From positions 2,176,001 to 2,240,000 of the forward strand of contig OZ242374.1 in assembly GCA_965209055.1 (NCBI GenBank): a stretch of 64,000 nucleotides of DNA, read 5' to 3'. A program made the translations under genes and the position numbers. Below the pieces are notes generated by a model. It saw only the letters and a list, made by a program, of their open reading frames with translations. It ran no database searches and was not told the DNA's origin. Below are positions 9,115 through 48,356 of this stretch, one piece after another. The DNA comes from Acidobacteriota bacterium. Its GTDB lineage: Bacteria; Acidobacteriota; UBA6911; RPQK01; JAJDTT01. Position 1 is the stretch's first letter, and each line of letters starts with the position of its first letter.

Positions 9115-10646
9115 CCTCGCGTCCGGCACGGGGCTGGTTGTTGGCCGCCGGCCTGCTCTTCTGCGGGCTGTTTTCGACGGGCTTCCCGGTTCCCTCCGAA
9201 GTGCGGGAAGTGGGAAGCGAGCTCCAGCCCCTCTGGGACGACTGGCTGATCGAAAGCCTGGAGAACGTCCGGCATGTTCTTCACCGGCCGGAGCCGCGGG
9301 AGGTCGTTCTGCGGCGCGACCGTCCCTGGGAGGACCACGCCATCTACAACCCGGTGGTCATCAAGGACGGATACCGGTACCGGATGTGGTATCGGGCCCG
9401 GGCGGTGGAGAAACCGATCCTGACCGCCTACGCCGAGAGTCTGGACGGGATCCATTGGGTGAAGCCCAAGCTGGGCCTCATCGAGCACGACGGGTCGAAG
9501 GAGAACAACCTCGTCTGGCCGGTGCCCGGGGGCATCGGCCGGTCCGTCTCCGTCGTCAAGGACGGAAACCCCGAGGCGGACCCTCAGGAGCGCTACAAGG
9601 CCATCACCAACCAGGGGACCAAGCTGCCTTCGGGCCGGGAGATCGCCCTGCTCTACGGCCTGGTCTCCCCCGACGGCCTGCGCTGGCGCATGGTCCGGCA
9701 GGGACCCATCGTCGTGCCGCCGCTGGGAGACGGAGCCTTCGATTCCCACAACATCATCCTGTGGGACGAAGCCCGGGGGTGCTATTCCATCTACGCACGG
9801 GGCTGGTACCGCCGCGGAAGCAGGCCGCTGGACGGAAAGACGGTGGGCAGGGGACCCTACCATGTCCTGATTGGGCGCCCCTCGGGATTGGTCGAGAAAA
9901 TCAGCCGGATCCGGGACATCCGCCGTTTCACTTCAAAGGACTTCCGGGACTGGTCCGAGCCCGAGTACATCGGTCTCGGCGAGACGCCCCTGGAGCACCT
10001 CTACAAGAACTCGGCCGTGCCCTACTATCGGCGTCCCGACCTGATCCTCATGTTCCCGAAACGGTATCACCCCACCCGGAAGTTTCACGCCGACTGGCCG
10101 GCGCCCGGACAGTCGGAGGTGGTTTTCATGTTCAGCCGGGACGGCGTGAATTTCGACCGGCGCTTCATGGAGGCGTTCCTCCGGCCCGGCCCGAACCCCT
10201 TGAACTGGCATGAACGGGCCATCCAGGTGGGCCCGACGCTGGTCCCCACGGCACCGGGCGAGATGTCCCTGTACTACGCCGAGCAGGGCAAGACGGACCA
10301 GGTCCGGATCCGCCGCGCGGTGCTTCGTGAGGATGGATTCGTGTCCCTTCGCGCTCCCTACCCGGGAGGCGCCGTTCGAACCCGGCCCCTCGCGTTCTCC
10401 GGGTCGAGGCTGTTCCTCAACTACTCGACCTCCGCAGCCGGAAGCATCCGGGTGGAGATCCAGGATGAGGCGGGCAATCCGTTCCCGGGCTACGCCTTTG
10501 AGGATTGCCCGGAGATCTACGGGGATGAGATCGAAGGGGAGGTGAAGTGGCGGGATGGAGCCGGAGTGGAGAAACTCGCGGGCCGAACCGTCCGCCTCAA
10601 GATCTCCATGAGAGACGCTGACCTCTACTCCCTGCGTTTCCGGTAG
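9111..10646 (+). CDS. Secreted GH32/43-like beta-propeller protein (paralogue 3); its 3' end is the insertion target
   Basis: ATG 9111 overlaps the upstream TGA (ATGA); signal peptide; YAESLDGIHW, FDSHN, DGFVS, DADLYSLRFR. Its TAG stop is part of a GTAG REP start. Confidence 0.85.
   Translation: MTSRPARGWLLAAGLLFCGLFSTGFPVPSEVREVGSELQPLWDDWLIESLENVRHVLHRPEPREVVLRRDRPWEDHAIYNPVVIKDGYRYRMWYRARAVEKPILTAYAESLDGIHWVKPKLGLIEHDGSKENNLVWPVPGGIGRSVSVVKDGNPEADPQERYKAITNQGTKLPSGREIALLYGLVSPDGLRWRMVRQGPIVVPPLGDGAFDSHNIILWDEARGCYSIYARGWYRRGSRPLDGKTVGRGPYHVLIGRPSGLVEKISRIRDIRRFTSKDFRDWSEPEYIGLGETPLEHLYKNSAVPYYRRPDLILMFPKRYHPTRKFHADWPAPGQSEVVFMFSRDGVNFDRRFMEAFLRPGPNPLNWHERAIQVGPTLVPTAPGEMSLYYAEQGKTDQVRIRRAVLREDGFVSLRAPYPGGAVRTRPLAFSGSRLFLNYSTSAAGSIRVEIQDEAGNPFPGYAFEDCPEIYGDEIEGEVKWRDGAGVEKLAGRTVRLKISMRDADLYSLRFR
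10596..10646 (+). repeat. Left copy of a 51-bp imperfect direct repeat (3' end of paralogue 3)
   Basis: CTCAAGATCTCCATGAGAGACGCTGACCTCTACTCCCTGCGTTTCCGGTAG is 44/51 identical to 24783-24833. Confidence 0.9.
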
Positions 10647-10711
10647 GAGGGGGGACATTCTTGTCCCCCGTTCCTCATCACTCAAGGAGCGGGGGATTTC
10701 CTATCCCGACT
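10643..10711 (+). repeat. Pair of REP-like palindromes (GTAG-initiated); the second is interrupted by the island
   Basis: GTAGGAGGGGGGACATTCTTGTCCCCCG hairpin followed by GGAGCGGGGGATTTCCTA. Confidence 0.7.
10687..10711 (+). mobile_element. Putative attL (core GGATTTCCTA at 10694-10703)
   Basis: GAGCGGGGGATTTCCTATCCCGACT is 21/25 identical to 23869-23893, which lies just downstream of the integrase. Confidence 0.7.
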
Positions 10712-10815
10712 GTTCCACAGTCAACAACTACCAAAGGTTAATTTTTTCAATGGATTACCGGGTTCTTCGCCGAATCGGTAAAGTGGTTGACTCCCAACGT
10801 TCGACGTTCTGAACA

Positions 10816-10830
10816 GGCAACAAACAGGCA
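10816..10830 (+). repeat. Putative integrase arm-type binding site (left)
   Basis: GGCAACAAACAGGCA is identical to 23766-23780. Each copy lies about 100 bp inside a core site. Confidence 0.7.
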
Positions 10831-11173
10831 GCAGGATTCGGCTCGTCAAAGCCGCGACATCCTTCTTCGTTCCGATCAGCCCTACCGGACAGAACCGCTT
10901 AATATACTTTATACAGATCTAATCCAATCCCAGAGCGTCGCCCGCTTTCTCCCGCCAACGATCCGGCGACATCTCATCCGCCCGCCACGCTTGGAGGCGA
11001 CCTGTTCCAACCGGGGCTTTGTTTCCTGAAGACAGCGCCGGTAGAAGTCCTCGACCCTCACTAGCCGGGACTCGTTCTTCCTCTTCATGCTCCCGGTCGG
11101 TCTGTTGGAACTCCCCGCTGCCGTCCAGTTTGCTGGACTTGTGTGCAATGGCGGGCGCGATCATCCTTGGGGA

Positions 11174-11548
11174 TCATCTCGAGCATGCGTTATAGACTCT
11201 ACTCAATTCTTCGCTCCAACACCTGAGCTCATCGTCCGCATCGCGGCCCAGCAATCGGGCTAACGTGAAAAAGCCGGGTCCGGGTCTCCCATCGCGCTTG
11301 TTCACGACCACGGCGGAGAGCATCCCTCGGCCTGCTTCATTCTCTTCAGTCGAGATATCCTCGATCATCTGTGCCAAGCGAGGGTCATGGGGCTCGAGAG
11401 TGCAACTCTTAATCTTTTTGTATGCGAGGTCTGAATAAGTAATCACCCTGGCAGCCTGAGCCACAGCAATCATGGCTTCGCGAGCTTCTTTCTTCGCCGC
11501 GTTCCAGGCGATTTCAGTAAATCCATGATTGAAGGTTTCACGCTTCAT
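11174..11548 (-). CDS. Hypothetical 124-aa protein, possibly winged-helix
   Basis: ATG 11548 with AGGGAG RBS; ITYSDLA..GRGMLSAVVV..GRPGPGFF pattern, which I recall from small conserved hypothetical proteins. Confidence 0.7.
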   Translation of the reverse strand: MKRETFNHGFTEIAWNAAKKEAREAMIAVAQAARVITYSDLAYKKIKSCTLEPHDPRLAQMIEDISTEENEAGRGMLSAVVVNKRDGRPGPGFFTLARLLGRDADDELRCWSEELSRVYNACSR

Positions 11549-11880
11549 GTGCTTCTCCCTTCTGGCAGATCGGACGACTGTCTCGGGGCAGCGTCCATTG
11601 ACGGCCCCTTTCTCTTGATACCCTCCCCCCCGATGAGCGTTTACGGTAACGGACTGAACCGGCAATAATTCGCGGCCCCCGCCCCGGCTTGCAGGATGCC
11701 CGTAGCGCTTCCGGATCTGGCACGCCAGTGCCAAGAGTCGGGCCAATTCGCCGGTCCCGGACCGACTTCGCCCGCTCCCGAGAAACGAGACGCTCTCAGG
11801 AATCCTGTGTTGGCTTAGCGCGTCCGGACTGCGGAGTCCGCAGCACTGGGAACGCTGTGGGACGGTCACTGAAACCGTCT

Positions 11881-11997
11881 GGCGCCGGAGGGACCGTAGA
11901 TTACCCCCAAGCTGCCAACGTGACTTTCAAGCGAGGAAGGCGAATAAGACCCAAGTTGTCGAAGAAGCAGAATCACCTACCAATGAAGCCTGACTGA
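11881..11997 (+). pseudogene. 3' remnant of a probable DNA methyltransferase/restriction gene
   Basis: TVDYPQAANVTFKRGRR resembles the (I/V)DYP..NVTFK(K/R)A tail of MTase-Mrr fusion proteins as I recall it; no matching upstream coding region. Confidence 0.35.
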
Positions 11998-12081
11998 ACC
12001 GCCTCCACCTAATGCTTGGTTGTCAGCTTGACTTCGTAGGTTGTGTTCCGCTCCAAGTCTGCAAATCAGCATATGGCCTAA

Positions 12082-12318
12082 CTAACCGACACGGACTTCT
12101 TCGTTGTCCAAATGTGATTGCACAATCGCCCCATTATGATCAGCCACGGCCTTTTCTACGAGCGACCTAAAGTTCATTGCGTCGTTTGGATTGTCGAAGC
12201 TTACTCTGCATGAATAACGGTAATCTACCTTTGTTACCGTCTCTGTCTGGCTTAGCTTTGCCTTCCCAAGCCCCGGTATGCCCAATTCGATCTCGGATTT
12301 TTTTTCTTTGAGGCTCAC
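12082..12318 (-). CDS. Hypothetical 78-aa protein
   Basis: Low-GC ORF 6 bp downstream of 12325..13098; protein-like composition. Confidence 0.55.
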   Translation of the reverse strand: MSLKEKKSEIELGIPGLGKAKLSQTETVTKVDYRYSCRVSFDNPNDAMNFRSLVEKAVADHNGAIVQSHLDNEEVRVG

Positions 12319-12324
12319 GGCAAC

Positions 12325-13098
12325 TCACCCGAGTCTTTCGACCGCTTTTTGGCCTTCGTTTCCAGTGTGTACTACATGGAACAACACACCCGGTGGATGT
12401 TGCACAATGACGCCAAGAGGGGTTTCCGAAAAAAAAGCGGAGGCCATGTCTTTTTCATACTTGAGACGCGCCCCTTTAAACATCTCGGAAGTGGTCGGGC
12501 TTGGCAGTCTTCGTATCGCTTCAGATAGCTCATTGCTTCGCCCAGTAATTTCCCCAACGATGTCGTAGTTGTTCGCGGCGAACATAAACGGAATAGGCTT
12601 CATCGAAGATTGAAAACCATAGCTTCTTGGGCTGTTTTTGATATGCCAGCGAGTTTGGATGCGATCAGTATCCGTTTGCCATCCGACGTAAATGTGTGTA
12701 GAGCAGAAGTGGGTATTATGATGATGGAACGTGAGGACCGTCGACTCTGTAAGCCCTTGGTCGTCGCCCTTTCCTTCGATCGAATGTTGATGGGGAGAGA
12801 AATTCTGATAGAACCAAGATGATCCGCCTGACGCGCCGATTCCACCGACGATATCCAACAAGGCATCTTCCACATTATCTGCTGGACCTACGACGGGCGT
12901 ACCCTTCGGGACACGTTCCTGCAAGATAGCCCTTCTTTCATTCACCAACGCGATAAGCCCATTTTCCGTCCTCCCACCTATCGCCAAGGTGACTCGTTTA
13001 CTGAACGGGCGTTCCCCTACGTCCACGACAGACGGCACATCAGGCTGCTTCGATGAGAACCGTATGCTAGCCAAGGTTTTTCTCCTTTCTTGGCACAA
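12325..13098 (-). CDS. Hypothetical ~250-aa protein
   Basis: Long ORF in low-GC DNA, so unlikely to be a shadow ORF; no recognised motif; start uncertain. Confidence 0.6.
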   Translation of the reverse strand: MCQERRKTLASIRFSSKQPDVPSVVDVGERPFSKRVTLAIGGRTENGLIALVNERRAILQERVPKGTPVVGPADNVEDALLDIVGGIGASGGSSWFYQNFSPHQHSIEGKGDDQGLTESTVLTFHHHNTHFCSTHIYVGWQTDTDRIQTRWHIKNSPRSYGFQSSMKPIPFMFAANNYDIVGEITGRSNELSEAIRRLPSPTTSEMFKGARLKYEKDMASAFFSETPLGVIVQHPPGVLFHVVHTGNEGQKAVERLG

Positions 13099-14411
13099 GC
13101 AAGGTGCAGTGTAGTCCCTCCAGTCAGCCCGTGGAGGTCCCCAGATCGATCATGTTCCCCATTCTATCATTGGGGGTGCAGCGCTTGGGGCAGTTTATCC
13201 TAGCGGATCGTAGCGTCCGTGGTCTCCACGGGCCCTTCCCTAGGGATCAATGAGAAGTGAGCGACTCCAAACAGGGAAAATAGTATATCAGCCCAGCCCG
13301 ATGGGGAAGTGCTGTGGGTGCCGCCGTCCCTCAGTGGAGCGCTACCCCCTCATGTCCTATGCTGGTCTGGTTCCCGTACAGGTGTTGGCGGCCATGTGAA
13401 AGTACAGGAAAAGTGGCCGTCGAAAATGCCAAGCCTCAAGAGTGTGACAGATTGATGGCTGGACCGCAGGATTTGCGTGTCCGGGAGGGAGGCCGGCGGG
13501 GTCCATTGGCAACCGTTGACAAAAGTAGAAGAGCACTCCATCGGGATGCCCATCAGCGACTCTACGACTTGGGGGTCGACCAAGTCGTCGGGATCGAGGG
13601 ACAAGGAAGTTCCGCCGTATCGATCCGGGAGTTGAAGGACTACTCCGTCTGCTGGCATCCAACCCCAGCGCTCCCTTCGTTTCTGTGGGAATGTGTCCAT
13701 GAGTTTCGAGCAAGCGGATCCGCAAGGACGGGCAACACCAATTCCTATTGAGGACAAGGGGTCCCAGGGAAGGTTTCCCCGGCAAGAGCTTTCATAGAGG
13801 GAAAGCAGGCCTCGCCCCATTCTCTCCCGTCACGGGCCAGGAGCACAAAAAGTATCTCTTGTATTTCATATCGTAATTGTAGGGAAACGTACGGCTTGTG
13901 AGACGTCCCCGGAGACCCGCGGGTCTCCAGGGCGTGGCTGGCCGGCCGCGAGGACCGGGCGCTGGAGCAACCCGAAACGGTCCGGCGCCACTGGGTCAGG
14001 GCCTCCGGCCCCAAGGTTGGCACACGGGATCGTTCGACGGCCAGAGAGTCCGCCAGGATCAAACGCGCCGTACTCATGGCAAACACGGCCGTCGTCAATT
14101 CCTACGGCGGCGTGCCGCCCGCGTTGAAACGGGCCATTGTTGTTGGGGAACCGTTGGCCAAGGGCTGTTCCTTCGGAGTCGTGATTGACGGCGACTCGAC
14201 TTGGCGGTCGATACGATTGCTGGGGACTCATTTCGGAGGGGCACAAAAGGACTTTCGCGCCCGATCCGGGATGTGAATGGGACATAGGGGGTGGATTCAC
14301 AAAAAGCGGTCCCGGTGACTCACAAATGCACTCTCCCCGATCTTGTTTCCTTTCAGTCAGTTACGGCCCAATTTCCGGCCGCCGGGTGGCCGCACGAGGA
14401 AAATGGAGGTG

Positions 14412-14509
14412 GACGGGAGCGACCCCCCCTTTTTGTTGCCCGGTGCGGGCGCGGGGGTGTTGCGCAATTCACATTTGCGCAGCACCCCCTGGGGGGGGTC
14501 GCTCCCGTC
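14412..14509. repeat. Nested inverted repeats forming a branched hairpin
   Basis: Perfect 18-bp arms 14412-14429/14492-14509, inner 15-bp arms 14453-14467/14475-14489 (one G-T), and a mini-stem at 14438-14450. Confidence 0.85.
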
Positions 14510-14817
14510 TCAATTATCCCTGCCGGGAAGGCTCCAATAAGGCTGGCTCTGGCAACCCGTGTAGTCAATCCTCTATGGGCCACCGCAGGCCACCGGTCTT
14601 GCTGATCCGGGGTGGAAAGTGGATCTGGTTGAACGCTCGATCTGGAATGGGAACCAGGACTTCGTTGAAGCGCTGGAGCAGAATGCCGATAGACAAATGA
14701 GATTAGCTGACCTTGGCGATCGGTGACGAATTGGGAAAGGTCCAAGTGGTACTCCGCCTTGCTCCGGTGAGCCGAATTGGCCAAGATTGACGTTTGACAT
14801 CAACTGTTACGAGTCGC

Positions 14818-15002
14818 TTGCGGGTGCTAAGCGCGAAAGACGCGAAGTACGGCTTCGGCCGACTCATCGACCTCGCCCGCGCAGCGCCCGTCACAGTGAC
14901 CAAGCACGGGCGGTTGTCGTAGTGCTCTCGGTCTAGGAATATGAGCGGCTGAAGGCGCTCAACACACCTGAGACGCGCCCGGGAACGGTGGAACGGGAAT
15001 GA
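14818..15002 (+). pseudogene. Phd/YefM-family antitoxin pseudogene
   Basis: (L)RVLSAKDAKYGFGRLIDLARAAPVTVTKHGR, then a frameshift to VVVLSV*EYERLKAL with an in-frame TAG. Confidence 0.8.
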
Positions 15003-15033
15003 CGTGGGACAGAACCGGAGGCCGCTGAACCGG

Positions 15034-17361
15034 ATGGACAAGCGAGACCTCTCAGAACGCGACATCTGCATGAAGTTCATCACGCCCGCCCTGCGCAATG
15101 CCGGGTGGGACGAGATGTCTCAGATTCGCGAGGAGGTGAGCTTCACCAAGGGCCGCATCATCGTGCGGGGCAAGCTGGTCGCACGCGGCAAGGGTAAACG
15201 CGCCGACTACATCCTTTACTTCAAGCCAAACATCCCGATCGCGGTGATCGAGGCGAAGGACAATTCCCACAGCGTCGGCGACGGCATGCAGCAGGCTCTG
15301 GATTACGCTGAGATCCTGAACGTTCCCTTCGCGTTCTCTTCGAACGGCGACGGCTTCGTGTTCCACGACCGTACGGGGGCCAGTACACCGCTTGAGTCGA
15401 ACCTTTCTCTCGAAGACTTTCCGTCACCCACCGACCTGTGGGCGCGCTATCGGGTCTGGAAGAGCCTGACGCCGGAAGCCGAGGAGATCGTCCTTCAAGA
15501 CTATTTCGAGGACGGCAGCGGCAAGACGCCGCGCTATTACCAGGTTAACGCCATCAACGCGACAATCGAGGCCATCGCCAAGGGGCAGGACCGTATCCTG
15601 CTCGTCATGGCCACGGGTACGGGCAAGACGTACACTGCCTTCCAGATCATCTGGAGGCTGTGGAAGGCGCGCCGCAAGAGACGCATCCTGTTCCTCGCCG
15701 ACCGCAACGTGCTCGTCGACCAGACGATGACGAACGATTTCCGCCCGTTCGGCGGCACGATGACCAAGCTCTCGCGCCGCATCGACCCCGCCTACGAGGT
15801 CTATCTCGGCCTCTATCAGGCAATCACCGGACCGGAGGAACGCCAGAAGACGTACCGAAAGTTCTCGCCGGAGTTCTTCGATCTGATCGTGATCGACGAA
15901 TGTCACCGGGGCAGTGCCGCCGCCGATTCGGCATGGCGCGAGATCCTCGAGTACTTCTCCTCCGCAACCCAGATCGGCCTGACCGCCACGCCGAAGGAGA
16001 CGAAGTACGTCTCCAACATCGCCTATTTCGGGAAGCCGGTTTACTCCTACTCCTTGAAACAGGGCATCCAAGACGGTTTCCTCGCGCCCTACAAAGTGGT
16101 CAAGATCCATATCGATCGCGACATCGAAGGCTACCGCCCAGAGAAGGGCAAGCTCGACCGCGACGGCGCGAAAATCGAGGACCGCATCTACAACCTTACG
16201 GACTTCGACCGGACGCTGGTCATCGACGAACGAACAACAGTCGTCGCGCATAAGGTCACGACTTTCCTGAAGGAGAGTGGCGACCGCTTCCAGAAAGCGA
16301 TCATCTTTTGCGTCGATCAGGAACACGCCGCGCGGATGCGCCAGGCACTGATCAACGAGAACGCGGATCTCGTCGAGGGCAACTCACGTTACGTCATGCG
16401 GATCACCGGTGGCGATGCTGCGGGACAGGCCGAGCTCGGGAACTTCATCGACCCGGAATCGAGATATCCTGTTCTGGTCACCACGTCGCGCCTGCTATCC
16501 ACCGGCGTCGATGTCCAGACTTGCCGGTTGATCGTTCTCGACCGAAAGGTGGGGTCGATGACCGAGTTCAAGCAGATCGTCGGACGCGGTACCCGCGTTC
16601 ACGAAGACACAGGAAAGTTCTACTTCACGCTTATCGACTTTCGGGGGGCCACCGATCATTTCGCCGACCCGGATTTCGACGGCGAGCCGGCCCAGATCTA
16701 CAGGCCGGAAGAAGGCGGTCCGATCGTGCCACCCGATGGGCCGGATACTGGCGGCGACGGGAACGGCGAGGTGGATACACCGCTGCCTGGACCACAGAAG
16801 AAAGTCTATGTCGATGGTGTTGAAGTGGCCATCGTCGCCGCCCGGGTGCAATACCTCGACGGGCACGGCAAGCTGGTTACGGAGTCGTTACGTGATTTCA
16901 CGAGGAAAGCCCTGCGCCGGCGCTTCGCGAGCCTTGACGACTTCCTGAACCGTTGGAACGCCGCAGAGCGCAAGCAGGCGATCATTGATGAAATGGAGGC
17001 CGAGGGCCTGCCGCTGACCGTGATCGCCCAAGAGCTGGACAAGGATCTCGACCCCTTCGATCTCGTCTGTCACATCGCCTTCGACGCCAAACCGCTGACC
17101 CGCCGCGAGCGAGCCGAGAACGTCAAGAAGCGGGATGTGATTACGAAATACGGAGGTCAGGCTCGCGCTGTGCTGGACGCGTTGCTCGACAAGTACTCTG
17201 ACGAGGCTATGCTAAATCTGGACGACGCCAACGTGCTGAAGATCCCGCCCCTCGATAGCCTCGGAACGCCGGTCGAACTGGTCCGCGCCTTCGGCGGGAA
17301 GCCCGGTTTTCAGCAGGCCGTGCATGATCTTCAGTCCGCTCTCTACCGGGAGATCGCCTGA
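15034..17361 (+). CDS. hsdR: Type I restriction enzyme R subunit (EcoAI-like)
   Basis: MDKRDLSERDIC N-terminus, ADY..VIEAK nuclease motif, MATGTGKT, DECHR, TATP, QIVGRGTR helicase motifs, EcoEI-type C-terminus. Confidence 0.97.
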   Translation: MDKRDLSERDICMKFITPALRNAGWDEMSQIREEVSFTKGRIIVRGKLVARGKGKRADYILYFKPNIPIAVIEAKDNSHSVGDGMQQALDYAEILNVPFAFSSNGDGFVFHDRTGASTPLESNLSLEDFPSPTDLWARYRVWKSLTPEAEEIVLQDYFEDGSGKTPRYYQVNAINATIEAIAKGQDRILLVMATGTGKTYTAFQIIWRLWKARRKRRILFLADRNVLVDQTMTNDFRPFGGTMTKLSRRIDPAYEVYLGLYQAITGPEERQKTYRKFSPEFFDLIVIDECHRGSAAADSAWREILEYFSSATQIGLTATPKETKYVSNIAYFGKPVYSYSLKQGIQDGFLAPYKVVKIHIDRDIEGYRPEKGKLDRDGAKIEDRIYNLTDFDRTLVIDERTTVVAHKVTTFLKESGDRFQKAIIFCVDQEHAARMRQALINENADLVEGNSRYVMRITGGDAAGQAELGNFIDPESRYPVLVTTSRLLSTGVDVQTCRLIVLDRKVGSMTEFKQIVGRGTRVHEDTGKFYFTLIDFRGATDHFADPDFDGEPAQIYRPEEGGPIVPPDGPDTGGDGNGEVDTPLPGPQKKVYVDGVEVAIVAARVQYLDGHGKLVTESLRDFTRKALRRRFASLDDFLNRWNAAERKQAIIDEMEAEGLPLTVIAQELDKDLDPFDLVCHIAFDAKPLTRRERAENVKKRDVITKYGGQARAVLDALLDKYSDEAMLNLDDANVLKIPPLDSLGTPVELVRAFGGKPGFQQAVHDLQSALYREIA

Positions 17362-17364
17362 GAG

Positions 17365-18816
17365 ATGTCCGTCAGCACACTCGTCAAGTCGATTCAGAAC
17401 ATCATGCGCCAGGACGTGGGCGTCGATGGCGATGCGCAGCGCATCAGCCAACTGTGCTGGATGTTCTTCCTCAAGATCATCGACGATCAAGACCAGGAGC
17501 TCGCAGTTCTCAAAGACGGATACCGTTCGCCCGTACCTGACCCTTTGCAATGGCGGAGCTGGGCCGGCGACCCGGAAGGCATCACGGGCGATGATCTGCT
17601 CGACTTCGTCAACGGCGATCTCTTTCCGAAGCTGAAGGAACTTCCGCGCAGGGCCGGCCCTCGCGCCAGCGTCGTGCGCGACGTGTTCGAGGACGCATAC
17701 AACTACATGAAGTCCGGCCAGCTGCTGCGGCAGGTCGTCAACAAGATCAACGGAATCGACTTCAACAACCTGACCGACCGGCGGCACTTCGGAGACATCT
17801 ACGAGCAAGTCTTGAACGATCTGCAATCGGCCGGCAATGCGGGCGAATACTACACGCCACGCGCCGTGACCTCGTTCATGGCCCAAATGATCGACCCGAA
17901 GCCGGGCGAGACCCTGCTCGATCCGGCGTGCGGCACGGGCGGGTTCCTCACCTGCGCCGTCCGGCACATGCGCGAACGGTACGTGAAGCGGCCGGCGGAC
18001 GAGGCGAGAATGCAAACCTCCCTTCGGGCGGTAGAGAAGAAGCCGCTTCCCCACATGCTTGCTGTCACGAACATGCTCCTGCACAGCATCGAGGATCCGT
18101 CCTTCCTGAGCCACGACAACACGCTGGCGCGCCCCTACATCTCCTGGGGCCGGGACGAGCGCGTGGACATCGTGCTGACCAATCCGCCGTTCGGCGGCAA
18201 GGAGGAGGACGGCATCGAGTCGAACTTCCCGAAGCACTTCCAGACGCGCGAGACGGCGGACCTGTTTCTCGCCCTGATCATCCGACTTCTGAAACTCGGC
18301 GGCAGGGCTGCCGTGGTCCTTCCTGACGGCTCCTTGTTCGGCGAGGGTGTCAAGACACGGCTCAAAGAGCACCTGATGAGGGAATGCAACCTTCACACCA
18401 TCGTGCGCCTGCCGAACTCGGTGTTCCGTCCCTACGCTTCGATCGGGACGAACTTGTTGTTCTTCGAGAAGGGAAAATCGACCAAGGACGTCTGGTTCTG
18501 GGAACATCTCGTTCCCGAAGGCCAGAAGGCCTATTCCATGACCCGGCCCATACAGCTGGAGCATCTCAAGGACTGTGCCGCTTGGTGGGGCGGGGAGGAA
18601 CGTAAGAGCCGCGAGGAAGGTGAACGAGCTTGGAAGGTGACTGCCGAAGAGATCACGGCGCGCGGCTACAACCTCGACATCAAGAATCCTCACACCGAAG
18701 AAGATGACCTTGGCGATCCCGAGACGCTTCTGGAGGAGCTGACGCGTGCCGAGACCGAGGTGATATCAGTACGAAACCAGTTGAAAGGAATCCTGACAGA
18801 GGCGCTGTTGCGGTGA
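17365..18816 (+). CDS. hsdM: Type I R-M N6-adenine methyltransferase subunit
   Basis: GEYYTPR, DPACGTGGF (motif I) and NPPF (motif IV). Confidence 0.97.
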   Translation: MSVSTLVKSIQNIMRQDVGVDGDAQRISQLCWMFFLKIIDDQDQELAVLKDGYRSPVPDPLQWRSWAGDPEGITGDDLLDFVNGDLFPKLKELPRRAGPRASVVRDVFEDAYNYMKSGQLLRQVVNKINGIDFNNLTDRRHFGDIYEQVLNDLQSAGNAGEYYTPRAVTSFMAQMIDPKPGETLLDPACGTGGFLTCAVRHMRERYVKRPADEARMQTSLRAVEKKPLPHMLAVTNMLLHSIEDPSFLSHDNTLARPYISWGRDERVDIVLTNPPFGGKEEDGIESNFPKHFQTRETADLFLALIIRLLKLGGRAAVVLPDGSLFGEGVKTRLKEHLMRECNLHTIVRLPNSVFRPYASIGTNLLFFEKGKSTKDVWFWEHLVPEGQKAYSMTRPIQLEHLKDCAAWWGGEERKSREEGERAWKVTAEEITARGYNLDIKNPHTEEDDLGDPETLLEELTRAETEVISVRNQLKGILTEALLR

Positions 18817-20609
18817 ATGCCGACCGCCTTTTCGCTCTCTACGACCGTGTTGCCGAGGCCCCGGCCGCCGTTGACCGCCTGCGCCGCTTCGTGCTGGATC
18901 TCGCTGTGCGCGGCAAGCTGGTGGAGCAGGATCCGGTGGATGAACCGGCATTGGAATTGCTGAACCGGATTGATAAGGCGAAAGATCTACTGGCAGGATT
19001 CAACCGGGCTAAGAAATCACGAGCACTACCACCGATTAACCCGAGGGAGGTCCCGTTCGAGTTGCCACCAGCTTGGCAATGGGTGTATTTCGGGGACATC
19101 GTCGATTTTTCCGCAGGCCGGACGCCCCCACGGAAAGAACCATCGTATTGGAATACCGGTGATTTCCCATGGATCAGCATCGCCGACATGGCGGACGGAA
19201 AGACCCTTCGATCTACGAAGGAGACTGTAAGCACCGAGGCCCGTCTCAATGTCTTTAAGCGTGAGCCGGAGCCACCCGGCACAATGATCATGAGCTTTAA
19301 GCTCACAATTGGAAAGATCGCCAAGCTGGGCATCCCCGCGTTTCATAACGAGGCAATTATTTCCATTCGGCCACATGTCGGTGAGCTAAACTCCTACCTA
19401 TTCAAGGTTCTACCTGATCTTGCACGGGGCGCCAATACCAAAGGAGCAATCAAGGGCGCAACGCTTAACCGCAAGTCACTTTCGACCATAATGGTCCCGC
19501 TCCCACCCCTAGCTGAGCAGCGGCGCATCGTTGCGAAGGTCGATGAACTCATGGCGGTTTGCGACCGGTTGGAGGAAACACGCACAGCGCGGGAGGAAAC
19601 CCGCGATCGGCTGACCAAGGCCAGCCTGACTCGTCTGATCGAACCCGACATCGACGCGCCGACGTTTCGTTCTCACGCGCACTTTGCTGTTGATGCCCTG
19701 CCAGCGCTGACTGCCCGCGCCGATCAGATCAAGCATCTGCGTCAGACGATTCTCAACCTCGCCGTGCGGGGGAAGCTCGTGGAGCAGGATCCGTCGGATG
19801 AACCGGCGTCAGAACTGATCAAGCGGATCGATGCCGAAAAGCGACGGCTAGTAAAGGCGGGCGTGATTAGGAAGCCGAAACCACTCCCGTCTCTCGAAGG
19901 CACCGAAACCCCGTTCGATCTCCCAGAAGGATGGGCATGGACTCGGCTCGGCCACCTTAGTCAGTTCGTGACCAGCGGTTCTCGCGGTTGGGCTAAGCAC
20001 TATTCCGACCAAGGCGCGATCTTTGTTCGGATGGGGAATCTGTCCAAGGACCACTATCGCCTCCGCCTCGATCAAATCCAGCGGGTGAAGCCGCCGCTGG
20101 GTGGCGAGGGCACTCGAACCCGCTTGAAGGGTGGCGATATCCTCATCTCGATAACGGGCAACGTGGGGATGCTTGGGCTGATTCCAAAGGGGTTTGGTGA
20201 AGCGTACATTAACCAGCACACGGCTATGGTGCGCCCTATGCCCGAGATGAAGGGCCGCTACCTTGCGGAACTGTTCCGTTCGCCGTTCGCGCAGAAACAG
20301 TTCAACAAACCCCAGCGGGGCATCAAGAACAGCTTTCGGTTGACGGATGTGACCCAGCTCTCGATCCCCCTCCCGCCCCTCGCTGAGCAGCGCCGCATCG
20401 TTGCCAAGGTCGATGAACTCATGGCCCTCTGCGGTCGTATGGAGACCGGTCTCGCTGCCACAGATGGCACCCGTACTCGCCTTCTCGATTCCCTTCTACA
20501 TGACGCGCTGGCCTCCGCCGCGTACGAAACCGCGAAGACTACGAGGCCTGAAGCACGAAGTACTTGGCCCGAGAGGGCACGGAGCGGGGGTGTCCCATCA
20601 AGGAGTTAG
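18813..20609 (+). CDS. hsdS: Type I R-M specificity subunit
   Basis: Two variable TRDs, each preceded by LAVRGKLVEQDP..PF(E/D)LP..W and followed by PLPPLAEQRRIVAKVDELMA; GTG start overlaps the hsdM stop. Confidence 0.95.
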   Translation: MNADRLFALYDRVAEAPAAVDRLRRFVLDLAVRGKLVEQDPVDEPALELLNRIDKAKDLLAGFNRAKKSRALPPINPREVPFELPPAWQWVYFGDIVDFSAGRTPPRKEPSYWNTGDFPWISIADMADGKTLRSTKETVSTEARLNVFKREPEPPGTMIMSFKLTIGKIAKLGIPAFHNEAIISIRPHVGELNSYLFKVLPDLARGANTKGAIKGATLNRKSLSTIMVPLPPLAEQRRIVAKVDELMAVCDRLEETRTAREETRDRLTKASLTRLIEPDIDAPTFRSHAHFAVDALPALTARADQIKHLRQTILNLAVRGKLVEQDPSDEPASELIKRIDAEKRRLVKAGVIRKPKPLPSLEGTETPFDLPEGWAWTRLGHLSQFVTSGSRGWAKHYSDQGAIFVRMGNLSKDHYRLRLDQIQRVKPPLGGEGTRTRLKGGDILISITGNVGMLGLIPKGFGEAYINQHTAMVRPMPEMKGRYLAELFRSPFAQKQFNKPQRGIKNSFRLTDVTQLSIPLPPLAEQRRIVAKVDELMALCGRMETGLAATDGTRTRLLDSLLHDALASAAYETAKTTRPEARSTWPERARSGGVPSRS

Positions 20610-20666
20610 ACTCGCGGAGTACTCCCCACGTCCGGTCCGGCCGGATTGTTTTGCAAGGATAAGGCT

Positions 20667-21815
20667 ATGATTCGCGTTCCAGTGCCCCCTAAGATGCTTC
20701 GCTGGGCCTGCGAACGTGCCGGTTATGACGTGGCGCACCTTGCGGAACGCATGCCACAGCTTCGGGCCTGGGTCCGACGCGAGAGACAGCCGACGCTGAA
20801 GCAGTTGGAAAAGCTGGCCATAGCTACGCACACGCCCCTCGGCTACCTGTTACTCCCTGAGCCGCCGGAGGAACGCCTTCCGGTCCCGGATTATCGCACC
20901 GTGACGGGCGCTAGGCGAGACAGACCGAGCCCCGACCTGCTTGACACACTCTACACGATGCAACGCCGACAGGAGTGGCTGCGGGAGTCTCTCGTCGAGA
21001 ACGACGCGGAACCATTGGCGTTCGTTGGAAGCGCTCGTCTTGCCGATGATCCGGACGCTGTGGGTCAGGAGATGCGGCGGGCGCTCGGTCTCGATCATGG
21101 ATGGGCTGCGGGGGTCCGCACGTGGCAGGATGCCGTGAGCGAGTTGCGCCGGACGATTGAGCAGATCGGCGTGATGGCGGTGATCAACGGTGTGGTGGGG
21201 AACAACACGCATCGCCGGCTGAGCGTACAAGAGTTTCGCGGCTTCGCGCTCACCGATCCTTACGCGCCGCTGATCTTCGTGAACGGTGCGGATGCGAAGT
21301 CGGCGCAGATGTTCACGCTCGCTCACGAACTGGCTCATATCTGGCTTGGCACGGAGGGGCTCTCCGGCTTCGAGTCTCTTCTTCCAGGTGGTACGGATGT
21401 GGAGGACTGGTGCAATGTGGCGGCGGGCGAGTTCCTCGCACCGGAACGGGAACTCAGAGCGCGTTGGGGGCAAGTCAGACGGGAGGCGAGTCCCTTCCAA
21501 GAACTCGCTCGGACGTTCAAAGTGAGCCCTGTAGTTGCCGCACGCCGAACCTTCGACCTGAATCTCGTCGACCGCAACACCTTCTTCGATTTCTACAAGC
21601 TCTACGTCAATCGAGAACACAAGGCCGGCACGAAGTCGAGTGGGGGCGATTTCTACAACAACCAGAACACTCGTGTTGGCGAGTTCTTTGGGACCCAGGT
21701 GCTGCGCGCAGCGATGGAGGGCCGTATCGGTTTCAAGGAAGCCTATGACCTGACAGGACTGCGTGGGGGAACCTTTCAGAAGTACGCCAAGCGGCTGGGC
21801 GTGGATCTCCCATGA
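20667..21815 (+). CDS. XRE-HTH plus ImmA/IrrE (COG2856) zinc metallopeptidase
   Basis: N-terminal HTH (..RQPTLKQLEKLA) and FTLAHELAH (HExxH) motif. Confidence 0.9.
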   Translation: MIRVPVPPKMLRWACERAGYDVAHLAERMPQLRAWVRRERQPTLKQLEKLAIATHTPLGYLLLPEPPEERLPVPDYRTVTGARRDRPSPDLLDTLYTMQRRQEWLRESLVENDAEPLAFVGSARLADDPDAVGQEMRRALGLDHGWAAGVRTWQDAVSELRRTIEQIGVMAVINGVVGNNTHRRLSVQEFRGFALTDPYAPLIFVNGADAKSAQMFTLAHELAHIWLGTEGLSGFESLLPGGTDVEDWCNVAAGEFLAPERELRARWGQVRREASPFQELARTFKVSPVVAARRTFDLNLVDRNTFFDFYKLYVNREHKAGTKSSGGDFYNNQNTRVGEFFGTQVLRAAMEGRIGFKEAYDLTGLRGGTFQKYAKRLGVDLP

Positions 21816-22336
21816 TGGCGGATCGGACCTATCTCGTGGATTCGGATGTCTTCATCACGGCAAAGAATCTGTATTACTCGTTCGACATCTGCCCCGGTTT
21901 CTGGAAGTGCTTGGTTCACCACCACCGGGAAGGCCGAGTCTTCAGCGTCGACAGGGTACGCAGTGAACTCCTCGCGGGTCACAGGAAGGAGGATCTGGTC
22001 CGGTGGGTGAGGGACGTAGTCCCGAAGGGTTTCTTCCTCCCAGTGGACACCGGCGTGGTCGTTCGTGCGTATATGAACATCATGATGTGGGTCCAACGCC
22101 ATCCGAGATATTTTAACCATGCGAAGGCGAAGTTCGCGACGGGCGCGGACGGCTGGTTGGTCGCATACGCTCAGGTTCACGGCGCAACCATCGTCACCAA
22201 CGAGCAGAGTGCCCCGGAGTCCAGAAAGGAGATCAAGCTGCCCGATGTATGCGATCAGTTCAAAGTGCGGCGGGACAACACGTTTTCCATGCTTCGGGCG
22301 CTGGACATCCACTTCGATTGGGTGGGTGACCGCTGA
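21812..22336 (+). CDS. DUF4411-family PIN-like protein
   Basis: YLVDSDVFITAKNLYYSFDICPGFW, ADGWLVAYA, IVTNE, KLPDVC; translationally coupled to the peptidase gene. Confidence 0.88.
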   Translation: MMADRTYLVDSDVFITAKNLYYSFDICPGFWKCLVHHHREGRVFSVDRVRSELLAGHRKEDLVRWVRDVVPKGFFLPVDTGVVVRAYMNIMMWVQRHPRYFNHAKAKFATGADGWLVAYAQVHGATIVTNEQSAPESRKEIKLPDVCDQFKVRRDNTFSMLRALDIHFDWVGDR

Positions 22337-22719
22337 GCGAGTTGTTTCATCCGTAAGTTACCTTCGATCTCTCTCGTCTCAACTACCCCCCGTCTCCGGT
22401 AGATGCCCATCGTCGGAAAGATTCACCGATCGCCGGAGATATCCGCAGTCTCTCAAATCCTGACCCGATAATGGAGATTATGACCAGTGCGTACGCTTCT
22501 CCTGGATCGTACCTCAAGTATGCGAAGACTACCCCCTAAAATGGGGCCGACGGGAAGCGTGATGATGAAGGTGTACACAAGAGCGCGCCAGTGGAACAGC
22601 CAGAAAATCCGCACGCCTTACTCCAGGTGATTCCTCTCCAAAGTTTCCGCATTGTGACTTGGAGCCGTGGTACGATTCGCCCCACGGCGAAGAACCCGGA
22701 TCCGGAAAGGAGGAGATGC

Positions 22720-23805
22720 ATGGGCATCTATAAGGTGAAGGATCGCCGGGGGAGACGACGTTTCGTCGTCAGCAAGTACTGGCCGCACGGATCCGGTCGG
22801 CTTCGAATGTACGCCCCCAATTACCGAAGCGCACAGGCGCTTCAAACACGAATCGAGTCCAGCATCCTGGACGGCACATGGAAGCAACTCAAGCGGGAAC
22901 TCGCCGGTGGGAAACGCACCATCTGGACGGTCCGGAGCTTCTACGAGCGTTTTTTCGAGGAGTATTGCAAACCTCGTCTGCGCTGCTTGCGCCGCTACGC
23001 GCTCTCTTTCAATAGCCTCAACACCATGCTGGGGAACATTCCCCTGAAGGAGTTCCGACGCAAAGACCTGCACCGCTACGTCGCCAAGAGAAAGAAGCAA
23101 GTGCAGCCGGCCACGGTGAACCGCGACATTGCCGCCATCAGCAAGCTGTTTTCCTACGCGCTGGAGTGCGGGGAAGTGGACACGCACCCGCTGGTGAGAT
23201 TCCCCAAACTGAAGGAGCCCAAGAAGGTGTTCCGGCCTTTGACGGTTCAACAGTTCCGCGACCTGGTCGAGGCGGTGGACAACCCCTACCTGCAAGCTAT
23301 GGTTGCGGTGATCGGCGAGACGGGGATACGGAAAGGCGAAGCGTTGTCGCTCACCTGGAGCCGGGTGGACCTGAGTCGGCGGATGTTGTGGGTGGAGTTC
23401 ACCAAGGACGACGAGCCGAGGGAGATCCCGCTCTCGAAGTACGCCACGGGATATCTGGCCGGACTGGTTCGTTACCTGAACACTCCGTACGTCTTTGTCA
23501 ACAGCCGGACCGGAACAAGATGGGTGAATCCCGACAAGTCTCTACGTCGCGCGGCCGAGAGGGTGGGGTTGAAGGTCGGATTTCACGACCTGCGGCGATT
23601 CCGGTGCAGCCACTGGCTGATGCAGGGTGTGGACGTGAGGACGGTGCAGAAGCTGATGGGACACTCATCCATCAGCACGACGATGCGCTACGCGGGGTAC
23701 GTCAGTTCGCATGCGCTCGCAAGCATTCGAGAGGCACAGGCTACCGAAGACTCACAAACGCAACCGGCAACAAACAGGCAACGGGTCGGAAACAAGGGAC
23801 AATGA
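22720..23805 (+). CDS. Tyrosine recombinase/integrase
   Basis: AGGAGG RBS; catalytic R (TGIRKGE), K, HxxR (FHDLRR), H (LMGH) and Y (TMRY); basic N-terminal arm-binding-like region. Confidence 0.95.
   Translation: MGIYKVKDRRGRRRFVVSKYWPHGSGRLRMYAPNYRSAQALQTRIESSILDGTWKQLKRELAGGKRTIWTVRSFYERFFEEYCKPRLRCLRRYALSFNSLNTMLGNIPLKEFRRKDLHRYVAKRKKQVQPATVNRDIAAISKLFSYALECGEVDTHPLVRFPKLKEPKKVFRPLTVQQFRDLVEAVDNPYLQAMVAVIGETGIRKGEALSLTWSRVDLSRRMLWVEFTKDDEPREIPLSKYATGYLAGLVRYLNTPYVFVNSRTGTRWVNPDKSLRRAAERVGLKVGFHDLRRFRCSHWLMQGVDVRTVQKLMGHSSISTTMRYAGYVSSHALASIREAQATEDSQTQPATNRQRVGNKGQ
23766..23780 (+). repeat. Putative integrase arm-type binding site (right)
   Basis: GGCAACAAACAGGCA, identical to 10816-10830, inside the integrase 3' end. 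Confidence 0.7.
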
Positions 23806-23868
23806 TTAGAAGAAAAACTGGGATAAAGGGTTGAGAAGAAAGGATTATTCTTTTAGATCAGTTAGACA

Positions 23869-23893
23869 GAGCAGCGGATTTCCTACCCCCACT
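23869..23893 (+). mobile_element. Putative attR (core GGATTTCCTA at 23876-23885)
   Basis: GAGCAGCGGATTTCCTACCCCCACT; 21/25 identical to attL; core lies 70 bp after the integrase stop. Confidence 0.7.
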
Positions 23894-23962
23894 TCCGGTC
23901 CTCCATTTCCACATGCTCATTCCGCCGGGTGTTCGCTGACTCGCCGCCTGGAAAGCGGAATT

Positions 23963-23996
23963 TGTGTAGATCACTGTGTAATATAGTGTGTAGAGT
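23963..23996 (+). promoter_or_regulatory. vapBC promoter/operator
   Basis: TGTGTA three times at an exact 12-bp period (23963, 23975, 23987), overlapping TATAGT/TAGAGT -10-like hexamers just before the vapB ATG. Confidence 0.55.
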
Positions 23997-24004
23997 GTGA
24001 CACG

Positions 24005-24205
24005 ATGGCAACGAACCTTGGAATAGATCCGGATCTGCTCGAACAAGCCTTGGCGGTCAGTGGCGAAAAGACCAAGAAGGCCACCGTCAACCGCGCCTTG
24101 CGGGAATTCATTGCCCGCCGTAGTCAGGAACGACTGCTCGGTCTGTTCGGCACACTGGATTGGAACGACGACTACAACTACAAGCGCGAGCGTTCCCGTC
24201 AGTGA
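24005..24205 (+). CDS. vapB: VapB-family antitoxin
   Basis: MATNLGIDPDLLEQAL..KTKKATVNRALREFI (RHH-type); overlaps the PIN gene. Confidence 0.9.
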   Translation: MATNLGIDPDLLEQALAVSGEKTKKATVNRALREFIARRSQERLLGLFGTLDWNDDYNYKRERSRQ

Positions 24206-24606
24206 ACCTGTTCGTGGATACGAGTGTCTGGTCTCTTGCACTCAGGCGTGATTCACCGCCGGAGGTTTCCGAGGTGCGGCGCCTCCGGAAAGCTCTCGTC
24301 GGGGGCACGGTTTACACGACTGGACTAGTGCTTCAGGAATTGTTGCAGGGTTTCCACGGTCCGCGCGCCCGGACACAGCTCATCGAGCGCTTCTCGGACA
24401 TGGCCATGATCGTGCCGACGCGCGGCGATCACATCTCCGCGGCCCGCCTGCGCAACGAATGCCGTCGCCGCGGAATACAGGTGGGAACCATCGATGCGTT
24501 GCTCGCCCAGCTCTGCATCAGCCACAAGCTCGTCATGTTGTCGACTGACCGGGATTTCAGTCATATCGCAACCTGCACGACACTTCGGCTGTGGGGGGCG
24601 AACTAA
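24202..24606 (+). CDS. vapC: VapC PIN-domain toxin
   Basis: GTGA overlap; VDTSVW, QELLQG, IDALLA, TDRDF acidic PIN motifs. Confidence 0.92.
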   Translation: MNLFVDTSVWSLALRRDSPPEVSEVRRLRKALVGGTVYTTGLVLQELLQGFHGPRARTQLIERFSDMAMIVPTRGDHISAARLRNECRRRGIQVGTIDALLAQLCISHKLVMLSTDRDFSHIATCTTLRLWGAN

Positions 24607-24698
24607 CGAACCGCAGAGGTGACTCGCTCGTCGCCTGTTTCTTGTTCTCCTGGCACTCCATGCACCCATTTCGTTTTGTGATGGGTTGCTCGGGAGTG

Positions 24699-24783
24699 CG
24701 GCGGCAAGAAGGTCGCCGTTGCCCCAGTTTCGTTCCGGATTCCCCCAGACTCCCCCGGCAGGGAAATTCCCCACTCCTCCTAC
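24699..24783 (-). repeat. Pair of degenerate REP-like palindromes in inverted orientation
   Basis: Minus strand reads GTAGGAGGAGTGGGGAATTTCCCTGCCGGG and GGCAACGGCGACCTTCTTGCCGCCG; GTAGGAGG mirrors 10643-10650. Confidence 0.55.
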
Positions 24784-24833
24784 TCAAGATCTCCGTGGGA
24801 GACGCCGACCTCTACTCCCTTCGTTTCCAGTGA
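24783..24833 (+). repeat. Right copy of the 51-bp repeat: orphan gene 3' end (LKISVGDADLYSLRFQ*)
   Basis: 44/51 identical to 10596-10646; reading frame and stop position are preserved. Confidence 0.9.
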
Positions 24834-24963
24834 ACGGGAGCGATTGGCGGAAGGGCGCTGAACCGGCCAGTGGTGCGGGTATCCCGATCGCCAGCCAAGT
24901 GGCGGCGACTGCGCTGTGTACGGTGGCGTCGCAGGTGGCCCGCCGATGGGGCGGCCCGATCCG

Positions 24964-37586: not shown

Positions 37587-37690
37587 GGAACGGCGATATC
37601 CAACCGCCGGGAGCGGCGATATCCTTGTCGCCGAACGGGGCGGCGATATCCTTATCGCCGAACGGAACGGCGATATCCTTATCGCCGAAC
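37587..37690 (+). repeat. Tandem array of four REP-like palindromes
   Basis: CGGCGATATCC...CGCCG units start at 37591, 37614, 37641 and 37668 (spacing 23, 27, 27). Confidence 0.9.
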
Positions 37691-48232: not shown

Positions 48233-48356
48233 GGAGCGGCGGTTTCCAACCGCCGAACTCCGGTGGAGCATGGAGGAATGGGAGGCTTCCAGTCACCCAC
48301 GAAACGCGTTCGGTCAAGGCTACTCCGGAAGCCGGCGGTCAGGAAACCGCTGCTCC
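48233..48356. repeat. REP-like palindromes
   Basis: GGAGCGGCGGTTTCCAACCGCCGAAC on +, a degenerate copy at 48275-48300, and an inverted copy near 48332-48356. Confidence 0.75.

Follow-up and report, generated by a model that had tools for sequence, protein, structure and literature searches.

How does a tyrosine integrase, a kind of enzyme usually viewed as specific for a single site, come to place its island in an intergenic position where no tRNA gene is present? This question is raised by a 13,182-bp island with restriction-modification genes in a 64,000-nt stretch of an Acidobacteriota genome (assembly GCA_965209055.1, contig OZ242374.1, positions 2,176,001 to 2,240,000). The whole stretch is called the window here, and its positions are numbered from its first letter. 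An earlier inspection of the letters (the sequence-only reading) had proposed that the integrase used a repetitive extragenic palindrome (REP) as its attachment site attB. We analyzed the ends of the island, its copies in the same genome, the target palindromes and the relatives of the integrase. Taken together, the best explanation is very probably a family of integrative elements with a tyrosine integrase of putative heterobivalent type, tRNA-Arg ancestry and REP palindromes as targets.

The island lies inside a host palindrome

The core GGATTTCCTA was found at 10694-10703 and at 23876-23885, within 25-mers (10687-10711 and 23869-23893) that are identical at 21 of 25 positions (84%) and spaced by 13,182 bp. 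The integrase open reading frame (ORF) stops at 23805, and 70 nt separate this stop from the core. All of these positions had been read from the letters before and were reproduced. The island itself occupies 10704-23885, with the imperfect 25-mer repeat at both ends. At attL (10687-10711, + strand), the host half of the split palindrome extends to 10696, the overlap TTTCCTA occupies 10697-10703, and the element begins at 10704. At attR (23869-23893, + strand), the last element bases are followed by the overlap TTTCCTA at 23879-23885, and the other host half of the palindrome begins at 23886. The GC content drops across the island, from about 0.66 to 0.50-0.62.

The core alone is a poor marker of the ends. 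The 10-mer GGATTTCCTA has two exact copies in the window and four with at most one mismatch versus 2.31 expected, and 19 of 100 shuffled sequences reached four, which is not significant. The repeat counts as significant because of the evidence from the element family described below, not because of the 10-mer by itself.

The island and its flanks were searched against 21 related genomes. In one genome of the same genus (G001), the left flank matched over 2,708 nt (query 1-2708, 89% identity) and ended at G001:4169990, and the right flank (query 15942-16610, 669 nt, 88% identity) started at 4170097. The gap between the two flanks is 107 bp in G001 versus 13.2 kb in the window genome. It contains an intact palindrome with an 8-bp stem, AGCGGGGG/CCCCCGCT, around TTTTCCTA, and the right flank resumes beside this empty hairpin. 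As single-stranded DNA the empty site folded strongly (-10.9 kcal/mol, z -4.42; matched by 0 of 200 shuffles), whereas attL (z -1.33) and attR (z -1.01) of the window folded weakly and no better than shuffles. The earlier statement that neither junction alone forms the stem agrees with this natural empty site. Our results showed that the restriction-modification island lies inside a short host palindrome and that its boundaries are at the core.

Further stem-loop elements of the GGAGC type were present in the window at 37610(+), 48233(+) and 50919(-), the three places named before, and one more was found at 48356(-). A second REP-like hairpin (GGGGGGAC..GTCCCCC type) lies at 10648-10669, with the stop codon of the upstream gene on one side and the split palindrome on the other; the island's target therefore belongs to a small REP cluster.

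A family of 26 copies in one genome

The window genome (G000) is an Acidobacteriota metagenome-assembled genome in one contig of 6.08 Mb, whose coordinates are given below as G000:C1. Searching it with the integrase by tblastn returned 26 full-length copies with 84-94% amino acid identity, plus fragments. The first 150-165 nt inside attL were conserved at 30 places, and this conservation starts exactly at 10704, or at 10691 where the core is shared. A left end was found on the same strand 1.4-24 kb upstream of all 26 integrases, and four left ends were unpaired. The core was shared by both ends in 23 of the 26 elements by script and in two more by eye, and the last copy is cut by the contig end. 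The proposed placement of the boundaries at the core is thus upheld both by the same-genus empty site and by the exact start of conservation in 30 left and 26 right ends.

The 25 mapped elements are 2.7-25 kb each and sum to 258,883 bp, or 4.26% of the genome. Their outer flanks are different at each locus, and joining these flanks restored a central hairpin in 22 of 23 elements. The sequence-only reading had suggested asking whether island boundaries split REPs at different loci; 25 elements were found to split palindromes at 25 loci. Some copies are nearly or fully identical, with differing flanks: e15 (4495143) and e23 (6054138) are 100% identical over 2,771 bp, e7 (2810310) and e13 (3698756) 100% over 10,509 bp, and e1 and e8 99.2% over 4,128 bp. 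Identical pairs at different loci reflect recent movement. The minimal element measures 2.7 kb and runs from the conserved left end through some 1.5 kb of conserved non-coding DNA and the integrase gene to the right end; its sole conserved gene is the tyrosine integrase. A site-specific integrase here spreads much like a transposon.

The four unpaired left ends, at G000:C1 474732(+), 484589(-), 416690(+) and 4708655(-), have no full-length integrase nearby. Integrase fragments lie elsewhere in the contig (e.g. 2499791-2500674 and 463582-463787). Both kinds of remnant are probably decayed elements. The contig ends inside an element copy (G000:C1:6074476-6077182), and the start of the contig does not continue its sequence; the assembly was probably cut or mis-closed at this element repeat.

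The targets belong to a genus-wide REP superfamily

A census of perfect hairpins with 7-bp stems in the genome revealed one dominant design, with a GG(C/G)G(A/G).. stem and a GGAA/TTCC-containing centre, whose top classes have 81, 79, 58, 52 and 51 copies. Unoccupied targets were counted by a Hamming-distance scan. The 27-mer target of the TTTCCAA type had 6 exact unoccupied copies, 19 with at most one mismatch, 54 with at most two, 80 with at most three and 104 with at most four. For the CTGTTAG-type 15-mer, 12 unoccupied exact cores were counted versus 25 copies at element junctions.

A RAYT-like gene was found at G000:C1:1142807-1143728(-). It matches PF01797 with 30.8 bits versus a cut-off of 23 and contains an HUH-type ..PNHVHVL.. 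motif. Three REPs lie upstream of it (to 1143775), and an element of the GATTTCTAA type is inserted in the first of them. The suspicion that the split palindromes belong to a REP family is supported by this gene and by a superfamily of hundreds of copies.

The REP 17-mer was present in all eight same-genus genomes and in none of the 12 others searched, and the controls gave 0. Its counts in G000, G003, G004 and G002 were 79, 58, 43 and 42, and those of the left-end 18-mer in the same genomes were 28, 1, 23 and 0. REP numbers therefore do not depend on the element load. These results indicate that the elements target variants of one REP superfamily present throughout the genus. REP pairs were also seen in a tandem array, repeated about every 80 bp, at G000:C1:3248844-3249318.

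The integrase clade descends from tRNA-Arg-linked integrases

The window element is not inside a tRNA gene: ARAGORN found 0 tRNA or tmRNA genes in the window, and the outer flank is not a tRNA 3' half. The inside of attR is different. Its 40 nt, ..CCCGTAGCTCAGTTGGACAGAGCA.., look like the beginning of a tRNA and lead into the core; in the window this attP right arm occupies 23840-23885 (+) and reads as the vestigial 5' half of a tRNA-Arg, with a D-arm-like ..AGATCAGTTAGACAGAGCA.. before the core. When the right arms were compared with the full set of 68 ARAGORN calls for the genome, tRNA-Arg came out best in 25 of 25 elements, and tRNA-Arg(TCT) in 19 of them. The 7-bp shared core falls at the would-be anticodon loop of this vestigial half.

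To place the integrase among its relatives, 50 loci from a homologue search and a profile-guided scan of species genomes were examined for tRNAs. At integrase identities of at least 89%, a tRNA downstream was found at 0 of 12 loci. At 84-88%, the stop was followed at both loci, after 30-50 nt, by a complete tRNA-Arg(TCT) on the same strand. At 73-76%, three of five loci had a same-strand tRNA-Arg and the other two had none. At 36-63%, a tRNA lay within 400 nt at 25 of 31 loci, mostly tRNA-Leu on the opposite strand.

A maximum-likelihood tree was built from 41 integrase rows, taken from full-length loci only and including three rows with internal stops. The 18 REP-type rows formed one clade (99/93). 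Its sister is L096, followed by L080-82, all of them with a same-strand tRNA-Arg, and next out are two integrases adjoining an opposite-strand tRNA-Arg. A real tRNA-Arg occupies the homologous position in L015, L096 and L080-82. L096 belongs to an element of about 47 kb in G003, a genome of the same genus, that still occupies tRNA-Arg(TCT). At the attL of this element, a 43-nt tRNA-Arg(TCT) 5' fragment is fused to the same conserved left end, and its attR is the complete tRNA gene. The REP-inserting integrases are nested among tRNA-Arg-linked integrases and descended from them. The earlier remark that no tRNA is present holds for the window, but the right arm of attP and the integrase clade both point to tRNA-Arg.

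Islands of this ancestral kind have been catalogued. The Islander paper (PMC4383910) counts 2,083 attP sites centred on the anticodon; a 5' tDNA fragment occurs in 159 of its islands and a 3' fragment in 3,760, which places the ancestor in a known but minority class. Other tRNA sources of the core were considered and rejected. The anticodon arms of the genome's own tRNA-Gly, tRNA-Trp, tRNA-Asn and tRNA-Val do not match, and the likeness of TCC, CCA, GTT and AAC in the cores to anticodons is spurious; the D-arm match indicates tRNA-Arg instead. A strict DNA pattern of the integrase end followed by tRNA-Arg had 0 matches in 76 genomes of the order, and this pattern is too strict, missing the real case in G003.

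Core types and a proposed mechanism

The copies in this genome fall into four core types. TTTCCTA was found in the window and three other elements, and one copy has TTTCCAA between G/C stems. The other types are GATTTCCAA/GATTTCTAA (five elements), GGACTAACAGTCC (seven) and GGGACTGTTAGTCCC (nine, one of which is truncated by the contig end). For three copies, attL and attR share no more than the 7 nt TTTCCTA. The GGACTAACAGTCC and GGGACTGTTAGTCCC types use one asymmetric target in opposite orientations, and their attP differs only at the central AAC versus GTT, as overlap-directed tyrosine recombination predicts. In a tree of 25 integrases these two types were intermixed and the two TTTCC types grouped together; just these two groupings were used, since rows e0 and e22 are in the wrong frame and e1, e13 and e21 carry a wrong N-terminal extension.

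Joining the inner flanks gives attP, in which an imperfect palindrome had been read from the letters; it is an imperfect inverted repeat around the same 7 bp, and GGA..TCC adjoins the centre on both sides. When attP, tRNA and REPs were aligned, the 7-nt centre of the element fell at the position of the anticodon loop. A second genome yielded further centres, including CTTCCAG, TTTCTAG and CTTTTAG; at least eight different centres occur in the two genomes. For both of its elements with a known left end, the rebuilt target again had a REP stem, GGGGCGA/TCGCCC(C), around a new 7-nt centre.

The tree and the attP arms suggest the following course. The ancestor would have entered tRNA-Arg at its anticodon loop, with restoration of the 5' half of that gene. 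Later, within this genus, attP would have acquired a different 7-bp overlap that matched the centre of host REP palindromes, the stems of which may stand in for the anticodon stem and mimic it. An altered overlap and some tolerance at the half-sites would have been enough for such a change of target. Recombination is expected to be an ordinary double-strand site-specific exchange, in which the REP stems act as two inverted half-sites flanking a 7-bp overlap: TTTCCTA in the window, and TTTCCAA, CTGTTAG or CTAACAG in sister subfamilies. The 26 copies could have been reached by landing at many intergenic sites, which are numerous because REPs are multicopy, with varied cargo in which restriction-modification and other defence genes predominate. 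What we infer from these comparisons includes the points of cleavage, the duplex nature of the substrate, any current activity of the window copy and the route by which the copy number rose.

Weighing the explanations

Several observations weigh against this explanation. The genome has an estimated contamination of 7.4%, though it is one contig. One of the 23 rebuilt targets has a 4-bp stem only and no central hairpin in its minimum-energy fold. A clean empty site was found in one of eight same-genus genomes: in G004 the left flank abuts sequence 2 kb past the island, in G002, G003, G005, G006 and G007 the left flank alone is nearby and the right flank is elsewhere, and G008 is fragmented into contigs at this locus. 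The target variant of the window is rare, with 0 exact sites, 2 within three mismatches and 5 within four. The idea of many neutral targets accordingly suits the TTTCCAA subfamily and not the window's own variant. The GGAG motif that precedes the stem on its 5' side lines up with AGAG in the attP of the window copy but lies one base off in other subfamilies, and the assignment of half-sites is therefore loose. In the minimal elements no excisionase gene is visible, and the Int_N arm-binding domain of the window integrase scores below the Pfam threshold (25.6 bits versus a cut-off of 27). Finally, excision, the circular form and integration are predictions from the sequence.

The rarity of some targets has also a different possible meaning. 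The palindromes at the ends, at least the GGGGG..CCCCC and GGGGGGACT..AGTCCCCCC variants, might be footprints or solo sites seeded by the element itself rather than REPs spread by a RAYT. The 12 unoccupied exact cores versus 25 junction copies, and the 2 to 5 near matches of the window type, would fit such an origin. It is nevertheless highly improbable, as the TTTCCAA-type REP is abundant (42 and 58 copies) in two genomes where left-end motifs number 0 and 1, all the variants follow the design of the large superfamily, and site-specific excision restores a target and creates no new ones. The view that the two 25-mers are unrelated REP copies with the true ends elsewhere, or that segmental duplication produced the copies, is contradicted by the data. 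In its favour, the 10-mer by itself lacks significance and the junctions do resemble other REPs, e.g. the one at 48356(-), but in G001 the empty site coincides exactly with the core, the conservation of 30 left ends begins there, and the flanks are unlike at every locus.

A question about the substrate was raised by the strong folding of the empty target as single-stranded DNA. The integrase might recombine a folded single-stranded REP hairpin and not duplex DNA, as integron integrases do at attC and XerCD does at the attP of CTX phage. REPs are known substrates of single-strand enzymes (PMC8266576), and the catalytic domain of the integrase weakly matches integron-integrase models at 60.5 bits. 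This score is far under the cut-off of 265, however, and relatives of the integrase target duplex tRNA genes at the anticodon loop. Moreover, attP itself is an imperfect inverted repeat around the 7 bp, and attL and attR, the products of both strands, are present and exact. We consider a hairpin substrate improbable. Nor is it needed for the REP-targeting element family that we favour: the palindrome reads as an ordinary core site with inverted half-sites and a 7-bp overlap.

Comparison with known systems

Anticodon-centred attP sites in tRNA islands are described among the Islander classes, which cite Williams 2002 (PMC4383910). The family described here shares with these islands a tyrosine integrase beside attP, a predicted crossover at a 7-nt loop between stem-derived inverted repeats, and a tRNA piece in attP, and close relatives of the window integrase are real tRNA-Arg islands. 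It differs from them in its intergenic palindrome target, in a decayed tRNA piece that restores nothing and in its 26 copies per genome.

REPs are entered by other mobile elements. The insertion sequences IS1397 and ISKpn1 (IS3 family) and IS621 and other members of the IS110 family insert in REPs and thereby gain many neutral intergenic targets. They use DDE or DEDD transposases, with a bridge RNA in IS110. In contrast, the enzyme of the present elements is a tyrosine recombinase that works with att sites and arms, and their cargo reaches 25 kb. Integrons (IntI/attC) and Xer dif/pdif modules likewise depend on tyrosine recombination at palindromes that are short and imperfect, and their cargo is modular and often related to defence. 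However, the window integrase matches no IntI or Xer equivalog (60-105 bits versus cut-offs of 220-335; for TIGR02249, 60.5 versus 265), and unlike integrons the elements form no cassette array at one attI, each having its own integrase at a dispersed site. In ICEclc (tRNA-Gly genes) and tycheposons, one integrase serves several equivalent targets with variable cargo, the targets being a handful of functional tRNA genes; here they are a REP population of tens to hundreds.

No tyrosine integrase that uses REPs as attB was described in the full-text literature that we searched (main texts, supplements aside), and the sequence-only reading had likewise known of no described example. One preprint that mentions both REP elements and integrases (bioRxiv 10.64898/2026.10.15.759431) concerns guide RNAs aimed at REPs, not integration. 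An integrase-borne island is a known kind of element; what is new, as far as we have seen, is the class of target, a copy number like that of transposons and a switch from a tRNA that can be traced.

One integrase lineage thus acts as a transposon family, with a multicopy host repeat as its landing pad. In one genus, living intermediates mark the route by which the target switched from the anticodon arm of a tRNA to a REP hairpin. The family makes up 4.3% of the genome and disperses restriction-modification and other defence genes over many loci, which bears on how defence islands form. It also suggests that REPs are more than neutral repeats and may be docking sites. If specificity lies in the 7-bp overlap plus loosely defined stems, the system could serve as an easily re-aimed integrase scaffold.

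Genes and cargo of the element

The conserved left end of the window island (P' arm) occupies 10704-10854 (+) and has 30 copies in the genome, with matches of about 135-205 nt; the left-end 18-mer counted above represents it 28 times. It contains putative arm-type or regulatory repeats at 10758-10772 and 10812-10835. Both arms carry conserved repeats, which the G003 relative has too.

The tyrosine integrase gene is at 22720-23805 (+). It is intact, encodes 361 aa and has a conserved ATG start at 22720; the 404-aa ORF from 22591 is probably an over-extension. The protein matches PF00589 with 94.2 bits versus a cut-off of 27.1, and the phrog_1 integrase with an E-value of 6.8e-60. The catalytic residues R204, H289, R292, H315 and Y324 are present in it and invariant across 29 homologues.

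The cargo includes a type I restriction-modification system: hsdR at 15004-17361, hsdM at 17365-18816 and hsdS at 18813-20609, all on the + strand. Its DNA recurs at about 90-92% identity in two other elements of the genome. It is followed by a gene pair at 20646-22336 (+), a helix-turn-helix plus ImmA/IrrE metallopeptidase gene at 20646-21815 (PF06114; matched by RmrA and capP models) paired with a DUF4411 gene at 21812-22336 (PF14367). Two ORFs on the minus strand, 11174-11869 and 12325-13098, lie in a region of low GC content (0.50-0.58) near the left end, and they had no match in Pfam, PADLOC, NCBIfam or PHROGs.

Across the family, 229 ORFs of at least 100 aa fell into 165 clusters, and 120 representatives of at least 140 aa were scanned, with hits counted by family and not per element. 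Pfam assigned 61 families, including several type I systems, N6_N4 methylases, NotI, GmrSD, AbiTii, Type ISP, MmeI and DDE transposases. One representative matched Cas1 (PF01867, E 3.3e-82). PADLOC detected type I, II and III methylases, specificity subunits and HEC-05. The cargo is rich in restriction-modification and other defence genes, and the defence character read from the letters is matched by Pfam and PADLOC in the window and among the cargo of the family.

A conserved non-coding module

A backbone module of about 350 nt at 14169-14535 contains a perfect 18-bp inverted repeat (14412-14429 / 14492-14509). All of the elements have it (25 of 25), and so do relatives, with 71-85% identity, among them the tRNA-Arg-targeting element of G003; it was also noted in L036 at about 900-1010. 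The module has nested hairpins and four copies of a TGTGAA/TTCACA motif. Compensatory changes were found at 11 of 64 predicted pairs versus 3-6 in shifted controls. Rfam gave 0 matches at E<=1 in window positions 10000-25000, and in two minimal elements three weak sub-threshold matches at chance level (best E 0.056). A protein encoded in the 1.5 kb or so between left end and integrase was rejected: the region has no codon periodicity and many indels, whereas the integrase is strongly periodic. The ORFs 13866-14300(-) and 14185-14700(+) are therefore probably spurious. The module may act as an RNA or as a DNA site, for instance an origin or a site bound by a protein.

A wider reading of the family, which we put forward only tentatively, is that of a new class of cargo carriers at dispersed sites. 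A tRNA integrase would have been re-aimed at REPs that mimic the anticodon arm, and its target would be set mainly by the 7-bp overlap of attP, so that single changes could switch the REP subfamily. The 350-nt module might then be an RNA or DNA cofactor needed for mobility or its control.

ARAGORN called a 'tRNA-Val' at G000:C1:5203736-5203820. This call matches the hairpin consensus of the module and lies within an element, and it is therefore probably a false-positive tRNA. A nearly identical sequence was called 'tRNA-Val' at G000:C1:3841235-3841319, outside all 25 mapped elements. Directly right of the window island, the host flank carries a VapB antitoxin and PIN (VapC) gene pair (24005-24606, +), which is outside the element and also lies beside the empty site in G001.

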